Shown in pieces: positions 47,759-54,989 of a stretch of DNA of 64,000 nucleotides. Source of the stretch: Escherichia phage IME08; sequence record NC_014260.1; one strand, given 5' to 3'. The notes beneath the pieces are model-generated. The model saw only the letters and a program-made list of their open reading frames with translations. It did no database searches and was not told the DNA's origin. Each line of letters opens with the position of its first letter. The stretch's first letter is position 1. A program made the position numbers and the translations under genes.

Positions 47759-48883
47759 ATGGAAAGATTTATGGCTGAATTTGGACAAGATTACGTTCAA
47801 ATTCCTGTACTATCTGAAAATAATGCCGTTAGTTATAAACTTAGTATAGCAGGGAGCTGTACTAAGTCCACTAAAAAGGCTTATATTAAATTTCAAGATG
47901 AGGACTTAGGTCCTCAGAATTTCCAATCTGGCCTAAATTTGGTTGAAATAGACCCGACCAATAACACAATAGTGACTACAAAATCATACGCCTTTACTAA
48001 AGACCATGATGTTATTTCCCAAGCGTTTATAACTTATATTTCGTCTATACCCGCCGGTAGAATTGTTTGCTTTATTTCTTCCGGTAAATTAAACGCCTCA
48101 CAGGTATTAATTGATTGGTTTAGAGCTTCCGGTTCTACAGCGTTTCCAGATAAATGGCTCATTGATAAAGTGGATACTTCTTATTCAGCTTTTTATGTTT
48201 CAGGAAGGAATGCTATAGTAATGGAACACGTGCTTTATAACGACGGCGTTTTGGTAGAAGACGTTTCCACCCCATTAGAAGTCGTTTATGACAACTTTAA
48301 TGATGTAGGAGGAACTGGGTTCCCTGTTAGAGTCATTGAAGATGAAAACACTTACTATAGTGGAGCTACTCAAGAAATTAAAAGGTTTCCTACCGAATCC
48401 ACTATAACTCCTTGTGCCGGTTATAATATGGTTCCTGGAGATTTCTTTTATCTCAAATTTCAAATGACCTACGACCAGGCTTTAAAAGATTTAGGAACGA
48501 CCCAGATGTCCATACGATTTTTTAATGGCCAGGAAATGATTCAATCCACTGATATCAATATTCCTGTAGGAGCGGGCTCTCCACCAGCAGGTGCATGGAT
48601 GTCTTTTGAGCGCGTAATAGAAGTTCCGCCGAATGCCAATGGTTTTACATTATATTGTAGAAAAACTGTCTCAGGCGGAGTAGGAGGTGTTAGGAATGTT
48701 ATGTTTGGTGAAATAGCTAGACCTGAAGATACTCCTAAATCCGCTGAAATTGGTGTTAACGGTATTCGTATGAGCTACGGTACTGAAACCCGTTCAATGG
48801 GTAATGTTATTGCACAATTGAATGACAAATCATCTGGTAATGCAGGTAAAGTATTTGTTCAAGAATTTAAAGAAAAATATTAA
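47759..48883 (+). CDS. 35: long tail fibre hinge connector gp35
   Basis: 374 aa (T4 372 aa). Confidence 0.8.
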   Translation: MERFMAEFGQDYVQIPVLSENNAVSYKLSIAGSCTKSTKKAYIKFQDEDLGPQNFQSGLNLVEIDPTNNTIVTTKSYAFTKDHDVISQAFITYISSIPAGRIVCFISSGKLNASQVLIDWFRASGSTAFPDKWLIDKVDTSYSAFYVSGRNAIVMEHVLYNDGVLVEDVSTPLEVVYDNFNDVGGTGFPVRVIEDENTYYSGATQEIKRFPTESTITPCAGYNMVPGDFFYLKFQMTYDQALKDLGTTQMSIRFFNGQEMIQSTDINIPVGAGSPPAGAWMSFERVIEVPPNANGFTLYCRKTVSGGVGGVRNVMFGEIARPEDTPKSAEIGVNGIRMSYGTETRSMGNVIAQLNDKSSGNAGKVFVQEFKEKY

Positions 48884-48940: not shown

Positions 48941-49600
48941 ATGGCTGATTTAAAATTAGGCTCAACCGCTGGAGGTTCCGTTATATGGCACCAAGGCAAT
49001 TTTCCGCTGACGCCGGTATCAAATGATATTTTATATAAGACCTACAAAATCTATACTGAATTTAATAAGCCTCAAGCCGCTGATAACGATTTTGTTTCTA
49101 AGGCCAACGGTGGGAATTATTTAGGTACAGTAAACTTTGATAAAGACTTGCAATTTAAAGATTCTGATGGATACTGGGTTAAATTAGGTAGAAAAACCAA
49201 TACAACTCCAATGTCATCCACGTATTCTTTCTCATTCAGAATGAGTAAAGGCATGGGTCTTGAAACTGAAACAGGAACCCCATTTGTAATCTTTGACCCT
49301 AGCACTACAGTAGGAGCTAACCGTCTTACAGTAATGGGTGATATCCTTGGACGTCAAATTAAAGACGAATCCGGAAGAGTATTTTCTCCAGGGAATACTC
49401 CGACAAAAGCCCAGGTGGGTTTAAGCGATGTAGATAACGCAAAACAGGTCCAAATAAATAATAGTAACATACAATCTATGGCTGGCGTTCTTTCAGCCCC
49501 GAATTTTATATCTAGGAACCCAGGTACATTGAACGAACACGTTCCTCGTATCGACCAGGTTGTTCTTAGAGGTACATCTGAAGATTTTGGATATTATTAA
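48941..49600 (+). CDS. 36: long tail fibre distal connector gp36
   Basis: 219 aa (T4 221 aa). Confidence 0.8.
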   Translation: MADLKLGSTAGGSVIWHQGNFPLTPVSNDILYKTYKIYTEFNKPQAADNDFVSKANGGNYLGTVNFDKDLQFKDSDGYWVKLGRKTNTTPMSSTYSFSFRMSKGMGLETETGTPFVIFDPSTTVGANRLTVMGDILGRQIKDESGRVFSPGNTPTKAQVGLSDVDNAKQVQINNSNIQSMAGVLSAPNFISRNPGTLNEHVPRIDQVVLRGTSEDFGYY

Positions 49601-49608
49601 GAGGCATT

Positions 49609-52600
49609 ATGGCTACTTTAAAATCGATACAATTTAAAAGAAGTAAAACACCAGGAGCCAAGCCTACTGCAGCTCAGTTAGATGAAGGCGAACTGGCTAT
49701 TAACTTGCGTGACCGCACTATTTTTACTAAGTCAGACCAGGGACAGATTATTGATTTAGGCTTTGCTAAAGGTGGCCAGGTTGATGGTGACGTGACTATT
49801 AACGGCCGTTTGACTTTAGAAGGCGAACTTGTCCAAACTAGTACTGCGGGTATGAGAACTGAAGGTAGTATTACCGCACCTGTCTTCCGAGCTAGTAAGG
49901 GCTCATTTTATTCTAGAGCATCTAATGATACTGCTAATGCTCATTTGTGGTTTGAAAATACCAACGGTTCTGAACGCGCTGTATTATATGCCAAACCACA
50001 GCTTGAAAATGAAGGCGTAATTACAATGCGTGTTCGACAAGGAACCGCAGCCGGCGCACAGAATTCAGAGTTCCATTTTATTTCTAATGATGGTGGTATC
50101 TTCCAGGCACGCAAATTAACTGCTTTAACTTCTATTAGTACACCAACTATTAGTGTTAATTTAATTAATCATGATTCTAAAGCCTTTGGACAATACGATT
50201 CACAATCATTAGTTCAGTATGTTTATCCAGGCACCGGTGAAACGAATGGTGTAAACTATCTTCGTAAAGTTCGTGCTAAATCCGGCGGCACCATGTGGCA
50301 CGAGCTTTGCACCGCCCAATTAGGTCAAGCTGATGAACTGTCTTGGTGGACAGGTAATACTCCGTCATCTAAACAATATGGCATTCGTAATGACGGACGA
50401 ATGGCAGGCCGTAATAGCCTTGCATTAGGTACATTCACTACAGATTTCCCGTCTAGTGATTATGGTAACGTCGGTGTAATGGGCGATAAGTATCTTGTTC
50501 TAGGTGACACTGTAACTGGTCTGAAATATATTAAACAAGGTAATTTTGATTTAGTAGGTGGAGGTTATTCTGTCGCTTCTGTTACTTCCGACGGCTTCCG
50601 TGGGACTAGTAAAACCATATTTGGCCGTAGTAATGACCAAGGTCTTACTTGGCTTCTGCCTGGCCAGAACTCTTCTATGGTTTCTATTAGAACCGAAATA
50701 GACGGTAATAACTCTGGGGATGGTCAAACCCATTTAGGTTATAATTCTAATGGTAAACTTTATCATTATTTCCGTGGTACAGGTCGTGTAGCCATTTCTA
50801 TGGCAGAAGGCATGATTATTGAACCGGGTATTTTGAATATTAAGACCGGGGTCAATGAACTGAATCTTAGAGCAGATGGCACAGTTTCTACCACCCAACG
50901 TCTGCAAATTAATAATGGCCTTGTTCTTAATTCTAATAATAATACTTCAGCCTTAGCTTTCACTGCTCCTACAGCCGTTGACGGGACAAAAACCCTTAAT
51001 TGGGATTCAGGTACTCGCGCAGGTCAGAACAAAAACACTGTTATTCTTAAAGCATGGGGTAACTCATTTAATGCTGAAAAAGGTAATCGTGAAACGGTAT
51101 GGGAAGTTTCAGATTCACAAGGTTATTATTTTTATGCCCAACGAACCAATCCAGCTGTTGCTGGTGGTGTGGGACCTGTTAATTTTAAGTTTAACGGAAC
51201 TGTTGAAACAGGCCATATCATAGGCCTTGGTAATATAAGTGCCTCTGGTACAGGTTCTTTTGGTGGCAATGTTACCATGACTAATGGCCTGTTTGTCCAA
51301 GGTGGTGCTTCAATTAACGGACAAGTTAAAATGGGTGGTACCGCTGACGCATTAAGAATTTGGAATGCCGAATACGGTATGATTTTCCGTCGTTCAGAAA
51401 CAGGTTCTTCTGCTTCATTACATCTTATTCCTACCCTTCAGAACGCTGGTGAAAACGGTGGAATAAGTGACCTTCGCCCGCTTTCCATTAATTTGGCTAA
51501 TGGCACGGTTATAATGGGTAATAAAAGTGCTGGATATGGTCCACTTTTTACAGTAGACAACGTAAGCAAATTTGTTCAGACCGACTGTCGACTGCGTGTT
51601 AATATGGATTCCGACGCCATTGTGGTAAATGCTTCATCCCAGGCGGCATCTAACTTTATCCAAGGACGTAAAGCCGATGTTACAAAATGGTATTTAGGTA
51701 TTGGCGACGGTGGTAACGTTGTTCGTTTACATAACTATACTTATTCACATGGTATTGCATTAAACTCTGATACTGTTGATATAACCAAGCCTCTTAAAAT
51801 TGGTTCTGATATTCGTATTGGTACCGATGGTAATATTATAGGCAGTGCTACTTTAGATAACTTTAAAAACCTGAATTCAACATTAGACCATAAAGTTAAT
51901 ATGGGTGGTTGGGCCGGTGGTGCTACTACAGGTTGGTATAAATTTGCTACTGTAGAAATTCCACAATCTACAGGTACAGCATCCTTTAAAATATCAGGTG
52001 GTTCCGGATTTAATTTTAAAAGTTATGGCCAGGCTTCAATAGCCGAAATAGTCCTTAGAACCGGTAATAATAACCCTAAAGGCCTTAATGCTACGCTATG
52101 GAATAGAACTTCTGAAGCTATTTCCCAGGTTGCTTCGGTTAATACAAGCGAAGATATCTATGATATTTACGTTTACTTAGGCGGGTATTCTAATTCTTTG
52201 GTAGTAGAATATACATGCAGTAGCAATAGTAAAGTAACCGTGGTAGGTATGGATAGCGGTGTCCAGCCTTTGGTAGAAACATTACCTGAAGGTCATGTTG
52301 TAGGTAAATCTGTAAGAATGCTGAACAACATTGACGGAATGTTTGCTGCTGGCGAATCGGATATTGTTACACGTGGTGAATACGTTACCAATAATCAAAA
52401 AGGTATGCGTATCAAATCCAGTGGTAATGATATAGGTTCTAATGCTGCTTTGATTAGAAACGACGGTGGAAGTTTTTATATTTTAGTTACAGATAAAAAC
52501 ACGGCAGAAAACCCAAATGCAACTGACGGGCTGTGGAATGGCTTAAGACCTTTCTCTATCAACATGGCCGATGGCCGTGTTGGCATGAACCACGGGTTAA

Positions 52601-53478
52601 ATATTACTGGTGGCGGATTAAACGTTACCGGTGGTAATACTAACCTTGGCAATATTACTTCGCGAGTGGTTTCATCCGCACGCGCGCCGGGCGGTTGGGC
52701 TGATAACTCAGATTCCACGAAATCTAAAATCACCTTTATGGCAGACCATGGTGATTTATCCAATTCGGGTAGTTATTATCCTATTGTCGGTGCGTGGAGT
52801 AACTATGGTTCAGCGGGTTATCGTCAAACCTTTGAATTTGGATGGGTCGGCACTGGTACCACAGCTGGTTGGCGCGATGGCATTATTCGTATACGTGGCG
52901 ACAACGCTACCGGCCAACAAGCAAGATGGCGCTTTACAATGGACGGTCTTTTAGATTGCCCTGGTAAAGTACAGATGCCACAAACAAGTGCCTTTGGTGT
53001 TAATACAACTAACTCACTCGGTGGAAGTAGTATAACATTTGGCGATAGTGATACCGGTATTAAGCAAAACGGTGATGGATTATTAGACATATATGCGAAC
53101 AATATACAAGTATTCCGTTTCCAAAATGGTGATTTGTACTCGTATAAAAATATAAATGCTCCTAACGTTTATATTCGTTCTGATATTCGTTTGAAATCAA
53201 ACTTCAGGCCTATTGAAAATGCTCTTGAAAAGGTTGAACAGCTCGACGGTTTAATCTATGATAAAGCTGAATATATCGGCGGTGAAGCGGTTCAAACCGA
53301 AGCGGGTGTTATTGCGCAGAGCCTGGAAGAAGTATTACCTGAAGCTATTTGTGAAGCTGAAGATATCAAAGGTAATAAAGTTCTAACAGTTTCGACTCAG
53401 GCACAAGTTGCTCTGTTAATTGAAGCGGTTAAAACCCTGTCGGCTAAAGTTAGAGAACTTGAAGCTAAATTAAATTAA
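49609..53478 (+). CDS. 37: long tail fibre distal subunit gp37 with C-terminal intramolecular-chaperone (S74-like) domain
   Basis: 1289 aa; C-terminus YIRSDIRLKSN…LSAKVRELEAKLN has the S-D-x3-K pattern and terminal helix of IMC autoprotease domains. Confidence 0.85.
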   Translation: MATLKSIQFKRSKTPGAKPTAAQLDEGELAINLRDRTIFTKSDQGQIIDLGFAKGGQVDGDVTINGRLTLEGELVQTSTAGMRTEGSITAPVFRASKGSFYSRASNDTANAHLWFENTNGSERAVLYAKPQLENEGVITMRVRQGTAAGAQNSEFHFISNDGGIFQARKLTALTSISTPTISVNLINHDSKAFGQYDSQSLVQYVYPGTGETNGVNYLRKVRAKSGGTMWHELCTAQLGQADELSWWTGNTPSSKQYGIRNDGRMAGRNSLALGTFTTDFPSSDYGNVGVMGDKYLVLGDTVTGLKYIKQGNFDLVGGGYSVASVTSDGFRGTSKTIFGRSNDQGLTWLLPGQNSSMVSIRTEIDGNNSGDGQTHLGYNSNGKLYHYFRGTGRVAISMAEGMIIEPGILNIKTGVNELNLRADGTVSTTQRLQINNGLVLNSNNNTSALAFTAPTAVDGTKTLNWDSGTRAGQNKNTVILKAWGNSFNAEKGNRETVWEVSDSQGYYFYAQRTNPAVAGGVGPVNFKFNGTVETGHIIGLGNISASGTGSFGGNVTMTNGLFVQGGASINGQVKMGGTADALRIWNAEYGMIFRRSETGSSASLHLIPTLQNAGENGGISDLRPLSINLANGTVIMGNKSAGYGPLFTVDNVSKFVQTDCRLRVNMDSDAIVVNASSQAASNFIQGRKADVTKWYLGIGDGGNVVRLHNYTYSHGIALNSDTVDITKPLKIGSDIRIGTDGNIIGSATLDNFKNLNSTLDHKVNMGGWAGGATTGWYKFATVEIPQSTGTASFKISGGSGFNFKSYGQASIAEIVLRTGNNNPKGLNATLWNRTSEAISQVASVNTSEDIYDIYVYLGGYSNSLVVEYTCSSNSKVTVVGMDSGVQPLVETLPEGHVVGKSVRMLNNIDGMFAAGESDIVTRGEYVTNNQKGMRIKSSGNDIGSNAALIRNDGGSFYILVTDKNTAENPNATDGLWNGLRPFSINMADGRVGMNHGLNITGGGLNVTGGNTNLGNITSRVVSSARAPGGWADNSDSTKSKITFMADHGDLSNSGSYYPIVGAWSNYGSAGYRQTFEFGWVGTGTTAGWRDGIIRIRGDNATGQQARWRFTMDGLLDCPGKVQMPQTSAFGVNTTNSLGGSSITFGDSDTGIKQNGDGLLDIYANNIQVFRFQNGDLYSYKNINAPNVYIRSDIRLKSNFRPIENALEKVEQLDGLIYDKAEYIGGEAVQTEAGVIAQSLEEVLPEAICEAEDIKGNKVLTVSTQAQVALLIEAVKTLSAKVRELEAKLN

Positions 53479-53483
53479 GAAAA

Positions 53484-53497
53484 GGGCCTTCGGGCCC
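53484..53497. terminator. hairpin GGGCC-TTCG-GGCCC (UUCG tetraloop) after gene 37
   Basis: Immediately after gene 37 stop. Confidence 0.55.
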
Positions 53498-53509
53498 TAA
53501 GGATTTATT

Positions 53510-54298
53510 ATGGCAATTGTAGGATTACCTGGTTGGGTCGGACAATCTGCAGTTGACGAAACCGGTCAACGTTGGATGGATGCAGCAATGCGTGATGTTC
53601 GTGTAGCTGTTCCGGGTTGGATGGGTTCGATGGCTAACCAATCAAAAGAAATTTACTATTCAATAGGGGCTAATCATAACTATGATAAAAACACCCTTAT
53701 AAACTGGATGAGAGCCCAAGGCGGGGCGCCTGTAGTTATCACAATTACCGGCAACATAGTATCAAATAGTACAGGCAACGCTTGCCTGGAATTTCCTAGT
53801 GACCTTCCTAATGCGTATATTCAACTTACCATTAATAGTGGCGTAACTGTTTATGGCCGAGGAGGTAACGGTTCGACTAACGGTTCAGCCGGTGGTAATG
53901 GTGGTGTTGCTATCCGTAACTCAGCAGGAACCAAATTGCGTATTCGAAACAATGGCGCTATCGCAGGTGGTGGCGGCGGTGGCGGCGCTGTATCGTTACA
54001 GAACAGCTATCCGACTAACGGTACCTGTGGCGGTGGTGGTGGTAGACCATTCGGCAACGGCGGGAAAATAGGGTCTGATGCCATATTGTCCGGTGCAAAC
54101 GCATCTTTAACTGGCGCTGGCTCGGGTGGTACCACGGTCCAATATGGTGCAGGCAACGGCGGTAACGTTGGAGCTGCAGGCGGACGAGGATGGGGTAAAA
54201 ACGTTTATACCTCTGCAGGTGGTTCAGCTGGCGCAGCCGTTACAGGTAATGCTCCTTCTTGGCAGAACGTAGGAACCATCTACGGAAGCCGTGTGTAA
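53510..54298 (+). CDS. 38: gp38 receptor-recognising adhesin (T2 type, glycine-rich motifs)
   Basis: 262 aa; conserved N-terminus MAIVGLPGWVG…ETGQRWM; poly-Gly islands (GGGGGGGA, CGGGGGRPFGNGG). Confidence 0.8.
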   Translation: MAIVGLPGWVGQSAVDETGQRWMDAAMRDVRVAVPGWMGSMANQSKEIYYSIGANHNYDKNTLINWMRAQGGAPVVITITGNIVSNSTGNACLEFPSDLPNAYIQLTINSGVTVYGRGGNGSTNGSAGGNGGVAIRNSAGTKLRIRNNGAIAGGGGGGGAVSLQNSYPTNGTCGGGGGRPFGNGGKIGSDAILSGANASLTGAGSGGTTVQYGAGNGGNVGAAGGRGWGKNVYTSAGGSAGAAVTGNAPSWQNVGTIYGSRV

Positions 54299-54309
54299 TA
54301 CTTCTGTAT

Positions 54310-54317
54310 TATAAATA
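54310..54317 (+). promoter_or_regulatory. late promoter TATAAATA (holin t)
   Basis: TATAAATA 19 nt upstream of t ATG, AAGGAGA RBS between. Confidence 0.65.
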
Positions 54318-54335
54318 TCTTTAAAGGAGAAAAGT

Positions 54336-54989
54336 ATGGAACCAAAAGTAGGAATATCGTTATCAGACCTACTTTTTGGACTTCTTGATAGAATTTTTAA
54401 AGATACTTCTTCCGGGAAAGTAGTTTTTTCCCGGGTCCTAGTCGTGGTATTATTGTTCTTTATGGCACTGGTTTGGTATAAAGGCGAGTATATTCTAAAC
54501 TTTTACAAAGAGACAACTTATGCCTCTTATACTGAAATGATTAGACAAGACCAGGACAATAGATTTAAAATTGCGGCTATCGAGCAGCTCCGAATAGTGC
54601 ATTCTTCTTCAGGCGCAGACTTCACAGCAATATATTCTTTTAGACCAACCAACATGAATTATTTTGTGGATATGGTGGCTTACGAGGGTAAATTACCGGA
54701 AACGGTAGACGCAAAAAACACGGGAGGGTTTCCAATTGACAAAACGTCAATAGAATATATGGCGGGAGTTAACGGGAACTATTTTGAATCAAGTACTGAA
54801 ACTGTATTTCTTCCTACAAAGAAGAAAACACAATTCACGTATATGTTTTCGTGCCCGTTTTTTAATTTGGATAACGTCTACGCCGGCTCGATATCGTTGT
54901 ACTGGTATGATATCAAACCGGATTTAGGATTTCCTAGACTTTCGTCTATGTGCGGTCAAGCCGGAAGGACATTAGGTCGAACACGTTAG
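54336..54989 (+). CDS. t: holin T
   Basis: 217 aa; single N-terminal TM (VLVVVLLFFMALVWY) and large periplasmic domain; colinear with recalled T4 T. Confidence 0.9.
   Translation: MEPKVGISLSDLLFGLLDRIFKDTSSGKVVFSRVLVVVLLFFMALVWYKGEYILNFYKETTYASYTEMIRQDQDNRFKIAAIEQLRIVHSSSGADFTAIYSFRPTNMNYFVDMVAYEGKLPETVDAKNTGGFPIDKTSIEYMAGVNGNYFESSTETVFLPTKKKTQFTYMFSCPFFNLDNVYAGSISLYWYDIKPDLGFPRLSSMCGQAGRTLGRTR

Follow-up and report, generated by a model that had tools for sequence, protein, structure and literature searches.

The window analysed here, a 64,000-nucleotide stretch of Escherichia phage IME08 (NC_014260.1), contains the gene order 35-36-37-38-t, as in T2. Gene 37 (49609..53478, + strand) encodes a protein of 1289 residues that ends ...NVYIRSDIRLKSNF...LSAKVRELEAKLN in the list of open reading frames. 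Its product was recognized as the precursor of the distal long-tail-fibre subunit by a match to PHROG 1699 (‘long tail fiber protein distal subunit’, E = 0), and it also matches the Pfam families gp37_trimer and Gp34_trimer. Gene 38 (53510..54298, + strand) lies directly 3´ of g37 and 5´ of the holin gene t, an order common to T2, IME341, fDHCT2, AnYang, VR20 and KRT47, and encodes a T2-type receptor-recognizing adhesin of 262 residues, assigned through Pfam GP38 and PHROG 2056. The two genes and the identity of their products to IME08 proteins are established: gp37 has the same amino acid sequence as ADI55564.1 / YP_003734385.1, and gp38 as ADA59472.1 / ADI55565.1, in both cases over the full length, although in the IME08 genome record gp38 begins one codon further upstream (263 versus 262 residues).

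The short gap between g37 and g38 harbours a putative intercistronic hairpin, AGGGCC-UUCG-GGCCCU (53483..53498, + strand), detected by RNA folding and by its conserved position. The hairpin is kept in six relatives, five of which have the same UUCG loop, while the stem is imperfect in AnYang; the stem bases differ from those of the window in T2, VR20 and KRT47. It is no more stable than shuffled sequences (z = -0.76), and the only support for it is its conservation across phages with changed stem bases. It is followed by an AAGGA ribosome-binding site, read from the sequence 6 nt 5´ of the g38 ATG (53499..53503, + strand) and conserved in 7/7 aligned phages. A scan for promoters and terminators over 53000-54500 gave counts not above those of shuffled sequence.

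The C-terminal end of gp37 carries a Peptidase_S74 domain (PF13884), which matches residues 1191-1246 with 54.5 bits (cut-off 22, E 1.4e-14). The match covers model positions 1-56 of 58, with the first model position falling on Ser1191. From this residue, the last 99 of the 1289 amino acids form an intramolecular chaperone domain at the extreme C-terminus of the fibre protein (53179..53475, + strand), predicted to be released after trimerization. An earlier, sequence-only reading had delimited a feature at 53165-54298, whose end is the gp38 stop codon and whose start falls 5 nt before the Tyr1188 codon (53170); its ‘~100 residues’ of gp37 correspond to amino acids 1188-1289. The S74-like chaperone domain that it had assigned to this segment is borne out by the Pfam match and by the alignment with S16 gp37 described below.

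The catalytic motif lies at the start of the domain. Ser1191 (codon 53179..53181, + strand), on which the Pfam S74 model starts and which aligns with the serine of S16, is the predicted nucleophile, with the scissile bond placed at Arg1190/Ser1191; Lys1196 (codon 53194..53196, + strand) is predicted to serve as general base in this Ser/Lys pair. The two residues show the i/i+5 spacing, in agreement with the dyad that the earlier reading had claimed, and are invariant across seven homologues in the gp37 alignment. The chaperone domain as a whole shows 78-92% identity to T2 and to Dhakavirus/Gaprivervirus homologues, and the context of the cleavage site, NINAPNVYIR/SDIRLKSNF (cut at /), is identical in T2. 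The residues immediately before the cut, KNINAPNVYIR (amino acids 1180-1190; 53146..53178, + strand), would be the last of the mature gp37; they are identical in T2 and essentially conserved among seven T2-type gp37 proteins, and they are presumed to form the gp38 docking surface. In S16/fPS, the equivalent strand has been described as the tip on which gp38 docks (PMC7917993).

A structurally characterized relative is the gp37(3)-gp38 tip of phage S16 (PDB 6F45; Dunne et al. 2018), which is homologous over the whole of gp38 and the gp37 chaperone domain. The gp37 C-terminus matches S16 gp37 (6F45_A) with an E-value of 6.9e-11, with SDIRLK aligned on SDRRIK, and a profile of the chaperone domain retrieves 6F45_A from the PDB (E 1.8e-5), together with the auto-processing domain of MYRF (7DC3, E 3.7e-5). 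The phage tail fibre 8JOV was a weak match in the sequence and profile searches of the PDB with this domain, and matches to interleukin-10 in a PDB search (E 0.2-0.5) were dismissed as chance. S16 gp37 cuts just before the serine of SDRRIK (DLNVS^SDRRIKK) and autocleaves its last 113 residues, compared with the 99 predicted here, exposing the docking surface for gp38 (PMC7917993).

The K1F endosialidase and the L-shaped fibre protein pb1 of T5 are alike in having a C-terminal auto-processing domain behind a trimeric fibre, likewise with a Ser(i)/Lys(i+5) pair and a cut immediately before the serine (PMC4690869). In T5 pb1 the catalytic residues are Ser1264/Lys1269 (i/i+5), with cleavage at Thr1263/Ser1264, and in both T5 and K1F upstream Arg and Asp residues from a neighbouring chain sense correct folding (PMC4690869); R1170 and D1175 are sequence candidates for such sensors in gp37. 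These proteins are distant in sequence, and differ in that here, after release of the domain, a separate adhesin would cap the tip, which is not itself the receptor-binding end. Neither sequence nor profile searches of the PDB with the chaperone domain retrieved the K1F or T5 chaperones, so the link to them comes from Pfam and the literature. A literature search for the K1F endosialidase pair Ser911/Lys916 found nothing.

The cleavage of gp37 is inferred from homologues, and the AF2 model of residues 1161-1289 is poor (pLDDT 56, pTM 0.34), being a single-sequence monomer model in which the trimer is not visible and which is too poor for a fold search; chaperones of this family fold into a mixed alpha-beta part and a trimeric coiled coil at the C-terminus. 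These two points leave some room for the S74-like C-terminus being an uncleaved relic that stays on the mature fibre. Such a fate is very unlikely given the invariance of Ser1191 and Lys1196 and the strong conservation of the entire domain. Moreover, the context of the site is that of T2, for which processing was reported (PMC3157838), and a retained domain would obstruct capping by gp38, since gp38 of S16 docks on the surface exposed by cleavage (PMC7917993).

The adhesin gp38 belongs to its family over its full length. PF05268 (GP38) matches residues 47-262 with the whole model (267.4 bits, cut-off 25, E 1.4e-79), PF21721 (Gp38_N) matches residues 1-42 (58.7 bits, cut-off 25, E 5.7e-16), and the protein matches PHROG 2056 (‘tail fiber protein; host specificity’) with an E-value of 2.4e-98. 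The GP38 and Gp38_N matches, like that of Peptidase_S74 in gp37, are far beyond chance and well over the Pfam cut-offs, the PHROG names agree with them, and the memberships are established; no NCBIfam model matches gp37 or gp38. The N-terminal attachment domain (amino acids 1-42; 53510..53635, + strand), delimited by Gp38_N and the AF2 model, consists in that model of three short helices (10-18, 23-29 and 38-41), each adjoined or begun by one of the tryptophans W9, W22 and W37. Of 73 homologues, 71 carry W9 and W22, and 45 carry W37, which upholds the conserved attachment segment that had been proposed for the 262-residue protein. In S16, three conserved tryptophans of gp38 plug into pockets of gp37 (PMC6851490).

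Downstream of this domain, a linker and a predicted beta-helix body occupy amino acids 43-115 (53636..53854, + strand), with AF2 strands at 48-115 (pLDDT 91-98) that superpose on 6F45_D. The specificity domain follows (amino acids 116-246; 53855..54247, + strand), defined by entropy and indels in an alignment of 73 sequences. It comprises five conserved glycine motifs (116-121, 149-159, 174-185, 215-225 and 237-246) and, between them, four variable segments of high entropy that bear indels (122-148, 160-173, 186-214 and 226-236), the first with its high-entropy, indel-bearing stretch at 122-130; the boundaries are empirical and approximate, being drawn from column entropy and indel positions. 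This layout matches the GRM1-5/HVS1-4 scheme (PMC3157838) and agrees with the glycine-rich motifs framing variable loops anticipated by the earlier reading. Glycine makes up 23% of gp38 overall and 33% over residues 116-262, with runs at G153-G159 and G174-G178. The conserved C-terminal end (NAPSWQNVGTIYGSRV; 54248..54295, + strand), placed by the alignment and by AF2 strands at 244-258, is predicted to lead back to the beta-helix.

The AF2 model of gp38 (pLDDT 92, pTM 0.88) predicts a fold made up of a beta-helix and a polyglycine-II (PGII) sandwich, the latter having been described for S16 gp38 (PMC6851490). In a Foldseek search of the PDB, only the adhesins of PP01 (9V85, TM 0.78/0.91) and S16 (6F45_D, TM 0.82/0.87) were retrieved, with E-values of about 1e-22; the next match had E = 7. 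The same two relatives were found by sequence (6F45_D, E 1.7e-43, full length; 9V85, E 1.3e-43). The identity to S16 gp38 is only 43% in the structural alignment, with differences in the loops and in their lengths.

The founding example of a gp37–gp38 tip is T2 (work of Drexler, Riede and Henning from 1986-1989, cited by PMC3157838). T2 gp38 has the same length (262 residues) and 88% identity, with 32 substitutions, of which about 13 lie in variable segments, and falls together with SV76 and the protein studied here in one 90%-identity cluster. In gp37, the last ~270 residues show 72-94% identity to T2 per 50-residue block, whereas the shaft is a mosaic, with less than 25% identity at residues 51-178 and 627-733. 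The genome backbone also differs, being Dhakavirus-like in IME08 and that of a Tequatrovirus in T2.

Some database records call homologues of gp38 ‘distal long tail fiber assembly catalyst’, which would fit a role as in T4, where gp38 would be a folding chaperone of gp37 absent from the virion and the tip of gp37 itself would bind the receptor. These names are carried over from the annotation of T4, whose gp38 has been described as very different in sequence (PMC6851490). The gp38 of IME08 matches the adhesin family over its full length (GP38 plus Gp38_N), its predicted fold is that of the virion-bound adhesins of S16 and PP01, and its gp37 partner terminates in an S74 domain that can be removed, and not in a receptor-binding tip of the T4 type. 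Together with the identity to T2 gp38 and the cluster shared with T2 and SV76, these data make a T4-like role extremely improbable, and the T2-type nature of gp38 put forward by the sequence-only reading stands.

The locus is thus best read as a standard T2-type tip of the long tail fibre, formed by a self-cleaving gp37 and a gp38 adhesin cap that chooses the host, with a probability of roughly 90%. According to this mechanism, gp37 would be made as a 1289-residue precursor, whose 99-residue C-terminal Peptidase_S74 domain would drive the trimerization and folding of the fibre end. The domain would then cut itself off at Arg1190/Ser1191, Ser1191 being the nucleophile and Lys1196 the base, and leave. 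A single gp38 would cap the exposed trimeric tip (...NINAPNVYIR), presumably with a 3:1 stoichiometry and as a component of the virion, its three-helix N-terminal domain putting Trp9, Trp22 and Trp37 into pockets of gp37. At the distal end, the conserved glycine motifs would form a polyglycine-II ‘sandwich’, and the variable loops would determine the host range by touching a protein of the outer membrane, which, as in T2, would most probably be FadL and/or OmpF. The S16 tip complex supplies the mechanism in structural terms: Trp prongs, a beta-helix and a PGII sandwich. The course expected is the same as in T2, with processing of the gp37 C-terminus followed by the adhesin cap, and C-terminal proteolytic cleavage of gp37 with subsequent capping by gp38 has been described for T2/T6 (Drexler et al. 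1986, as cited in PMC3157838). A processed gp37 and a host range determined by the gp38 loops, both predicted by the sequence-only reading, are published T2-type properties (PMC3157838, PMC12529663). For IME08 we infer them, since no virion-protein or receptor experiments on this phage were found, the IME08 papers located being concerned with genome termini.

The most likely receptor of IME08 gp38 is FadL and/or OmpF, a soft prediction; there are 32 differences from T2 gp38, which binds both proteins (PMC12529663, PMC8509860). In contrast, S16 targets OmpC (PMC12892980). It is conceivable, at odds of about one against several, that the architecture is as described but that loop changes in gp38 redirect the phage to LPS or to a different outer-membrane protein. 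The variable segments differ from T2 at, among other positions, V161A, Q164K, T172S, A191S, A196S, G202D, S205T and V210F (window residue first), and Asn183, in the third glycine motif, is Val or Leu in all 14 closest relatives. Changes of one or two residues are able to switch the receptor, as between T2 and SV76 (PMC3157838) or, through Q206L, between RB51 and RB68 (bioRxiv 10.64898/2026.04.02.716166). Against such a shift, close relatives of gp38 generally have a common receptor (PMC12032242), and gp38 shares its 90% cluster with T2. In addition, Asp190, the position altered in an escape mutant of T2, is conserved, and FadL is the hypothesized receptor of two other Dhakavirus isolates (PMC12753057). 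FadL and/or OmpF thus remains the preferred assignment; that this particular allele, T2-type on a Dhakavirus backbone, might recognize neither FadL nor OmpF but some other receptor is a slightly fainter prospect still.

The gp37–gp38 tip is already known and already annotated; it adds nothing beyond T2, S16 and PP01 and raises no new question. Its main value lies in a correct annotation, which names the determinant of host range of this phage. It also points to residues for engineering: the variable segments of gp38 for retargeting, Ser1191/Lys1196 for fibre maturation and the N-terminal 42-113 residues of gp38 for compatibility with gp37.

In IME08, g37 (49609-53478, + strand, 1289 aa) and the adjacent g38 (53510-54298, + strand, 262 aa) lie downstream of g35 (47759-48883) and g36 (48941-49600) and upstream of the holin gene t (54336-54989). 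T-even long-tail-fibre operons, that of T2 among them, are arranged in this way. The sequence-only reading had placed a self-cleaving C-terminus of gp37, the distal fibre subunit precursor, and a gp38 adhesin at 53165-54298. This region is accurate, since it starts 5 nt ahead of the Tyr1188 codon of YIRSDIRLK, as quoted, and ends at the g38 stop codon. The gp37 sequence is identical to ADI55564.1/YP_003734385.1 and that of gp38 to ADA59472.1 (all Escherichia phage IME08), and the surrounding 24 kb show 95% nucleotide identity to Dhakavirus phage IME341. In the same operon, gp35 aa 57-128 match Pfam PF15711 ILEI (E 1.5e-08, 35.5 bits, cut-off 27), the "interleukin-like EMT inducer", a FAM3/PANDER-type domain whose name one would not expect on the hinge protein of a phage fibre.

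The gp37 C-terminus carries a Peptidase_S74 domain ("chaperone of endosialidase") at aa 1191-1246, scoring 54.5 bits against a Pfam cut-off of 22, with Ser1191 at the first model position. The claimed Ser/Lys dyad was found as Ser1191 and Lys1196, an i/i+5 spacing the same as in T5 pb1, where Ser1264, activated by Lys1269, cuts the Thr1263-Ser1264 bond (PMC4690869). The last 289 aa match the distal fibre subunit of Salmonella phage S16 (6F45_A, E 6.9e-11), with SDIRLK aligned on SDRRIK; S16 gp37 autocleaves its last 113 residues between both serines of DLNVS^SDRRIKK (PMC7917993). Besides S16, the only significant PDB match to the chaperone domain, obtained with a profile of seven T2-type C-termini, is the myelin regulatory factor auto-processing domain (7DC3, E 3.7e-5). 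A single-sequence model of the domain was poor (pLDDT 56).

The predicted cut falls at Arg1190-Ser1191, between nt 53178 and 53179, and would release 99 residues. The site, NINAPNVYIR/SDIRLKSNF, is identical in T2 gp37, and NAPNVYIRSDIRLKSNF is invariant across the seven T2-type phages. C-terminal proteolytic cleavage, followed by gp38 capping, has been reported for T2 and T6 gp37 (PMC3157838, citing Drexler et al. 1986). Motif spacing, site identity and this reported processing together strongly argue that IME08 gp37 is cleaved. Within the chaperone domain, Cys1259 (53382-53384, EAICEAED) is Arg or His in the six relatives compared, and is probably neutral because the domain would be discarded.

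Relative to T2, gp37 is strongly mosaic: identity is 78% at aa 1-50, falls to 12-22% in the stretches 51-178 and 627-733, is 36-62% through most of the middle, and reaches 72-94% in the final ~400 aa (IME341 gp37 is 96% identical overall). It is the tip, which has to fit gp38, that is conserved.

Pfam GP38 (E 1.4e-79) and Gp38_N (E 5.7e-16) jointly span the entire gp38, which belongs to PHROG 2056, "tail fiber protein; host specificity", and matches both solved gp38 adhesins (E ~1e-43). An AlphaFold2 model built from a 73-sequence homologue alignment was confident (pLDDT 92, pTM 0.88). By Foldseek it matches PP01 gp38 (9V85, TM 0.78/0.91) and S16 gp38 (6F45_D, TM 0.82/0.87); no other PDB entry was matched, the next standing at E = 7. 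Trp9, Trp22 and Trp37 adjoin or start three short N-terminal helices, W9 and W22 being present in 71/73 homologues and W37 in 45/73. In S16, three conserved tryptophans anchor one gp38 molecule on the gp37 trimer (PMC6851490).

A gp38 acting only as a T4-style chaperone is excluded by its family, its fold and the kind of end that gp37 has. That the S74 domain is an uncleaved relic is unlikely, given the invariant catalytic pair, a site identical to that of T2 and the exposed tip needed by gp38. In the first reading, the T2-type module of a presumably processed gp37 and a gp38 adhesin was both observed and interpreted correctly.

Column entropy on the 73-sequence alignment delimits, with approximate boundaries, conserved glycine motifs at aa 116-121, 149-159, 174-185, 215-225 and 237-246, alternating with variable, indel-rich segments at aa 122-130, 160-173, 186-214 and 226-236. 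This layout follows the GRM1-5/HVS1-4 scheme that Trojet et al. described (PMC3157838); therefore, the "poly-glycine islands framing variable loops" are real and typical of the family.

The 90%-identity cluster of gp38 includes T2, SV76, VR20, dhabil/CLB_P2, dhaeg, AnYang, IME341 and fDHCT2; T2 gp38 is 88% identical, and those of IME341 and fDHCT2 are 94-95% identical. T2 gp38 recognises FadL and OmpF (PMC12529663, PMC8509860), related gp38 proteins generally have receptors in common (PMC12032242) and FadL is the hypothesised receptor of two Dhakavirus isolates (PMC12753057), so FadL and/or OmpF can be predicted for IME08 with moderate confidence. Caution is advised by the 32 residues differing from T2 (~13 in variable segments), by a unique Asn183, and by receptor switches through one- or two-residue changes between T2 and SV76 (PMC3157838) and between RB51 and RB68 (bioRxiv 10.64898/2026.04.02.716166). 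Asn183 (54056-54058) belongs to the third of the glycine motifs, which reads RPFGNGG here and RPFGVGG or RPFGLGG in each of the 14 closest relatives, T2 and SV76 included. Within the T2-type cluster, this allele has no other residue of its own; among the 15 closest sequences, Asn183 occurs nowhere else.

A GC-rich hairpin with a UUCG tetraloop, AGGGCC-UUCG-GGCCCU (53483-53498), separates the g37 stop codon from the g38 ribosome-binding site. T2, VR20 and KRT47 carry GAGGGC-UUCG-GCCCUC at the equivalent place, so the pairing is preserved although the bases differ; the stability of the hairpin does not exceed that of shuffled sequence (z = -0.76). T4 has long been known for stable intercistronic hairpins of the C(UUCG)G kind, reportedly treated by Tuerk et al. 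in 1988, and this one probably belongs among them. The genome record starts a 263-aa gp38 at an ATT one codon upstream of the 53510 ATG (53507-53512), apparently through an annotation error: the ATG (MAIVG...) is the start in ADA59472.1, in T2 and in every relative, and here it stands 6 nt past an AAGGA ribosome-binding site.

The gp37-gp38 module is textbook T2-type biology in a phage already deposited and annotated.
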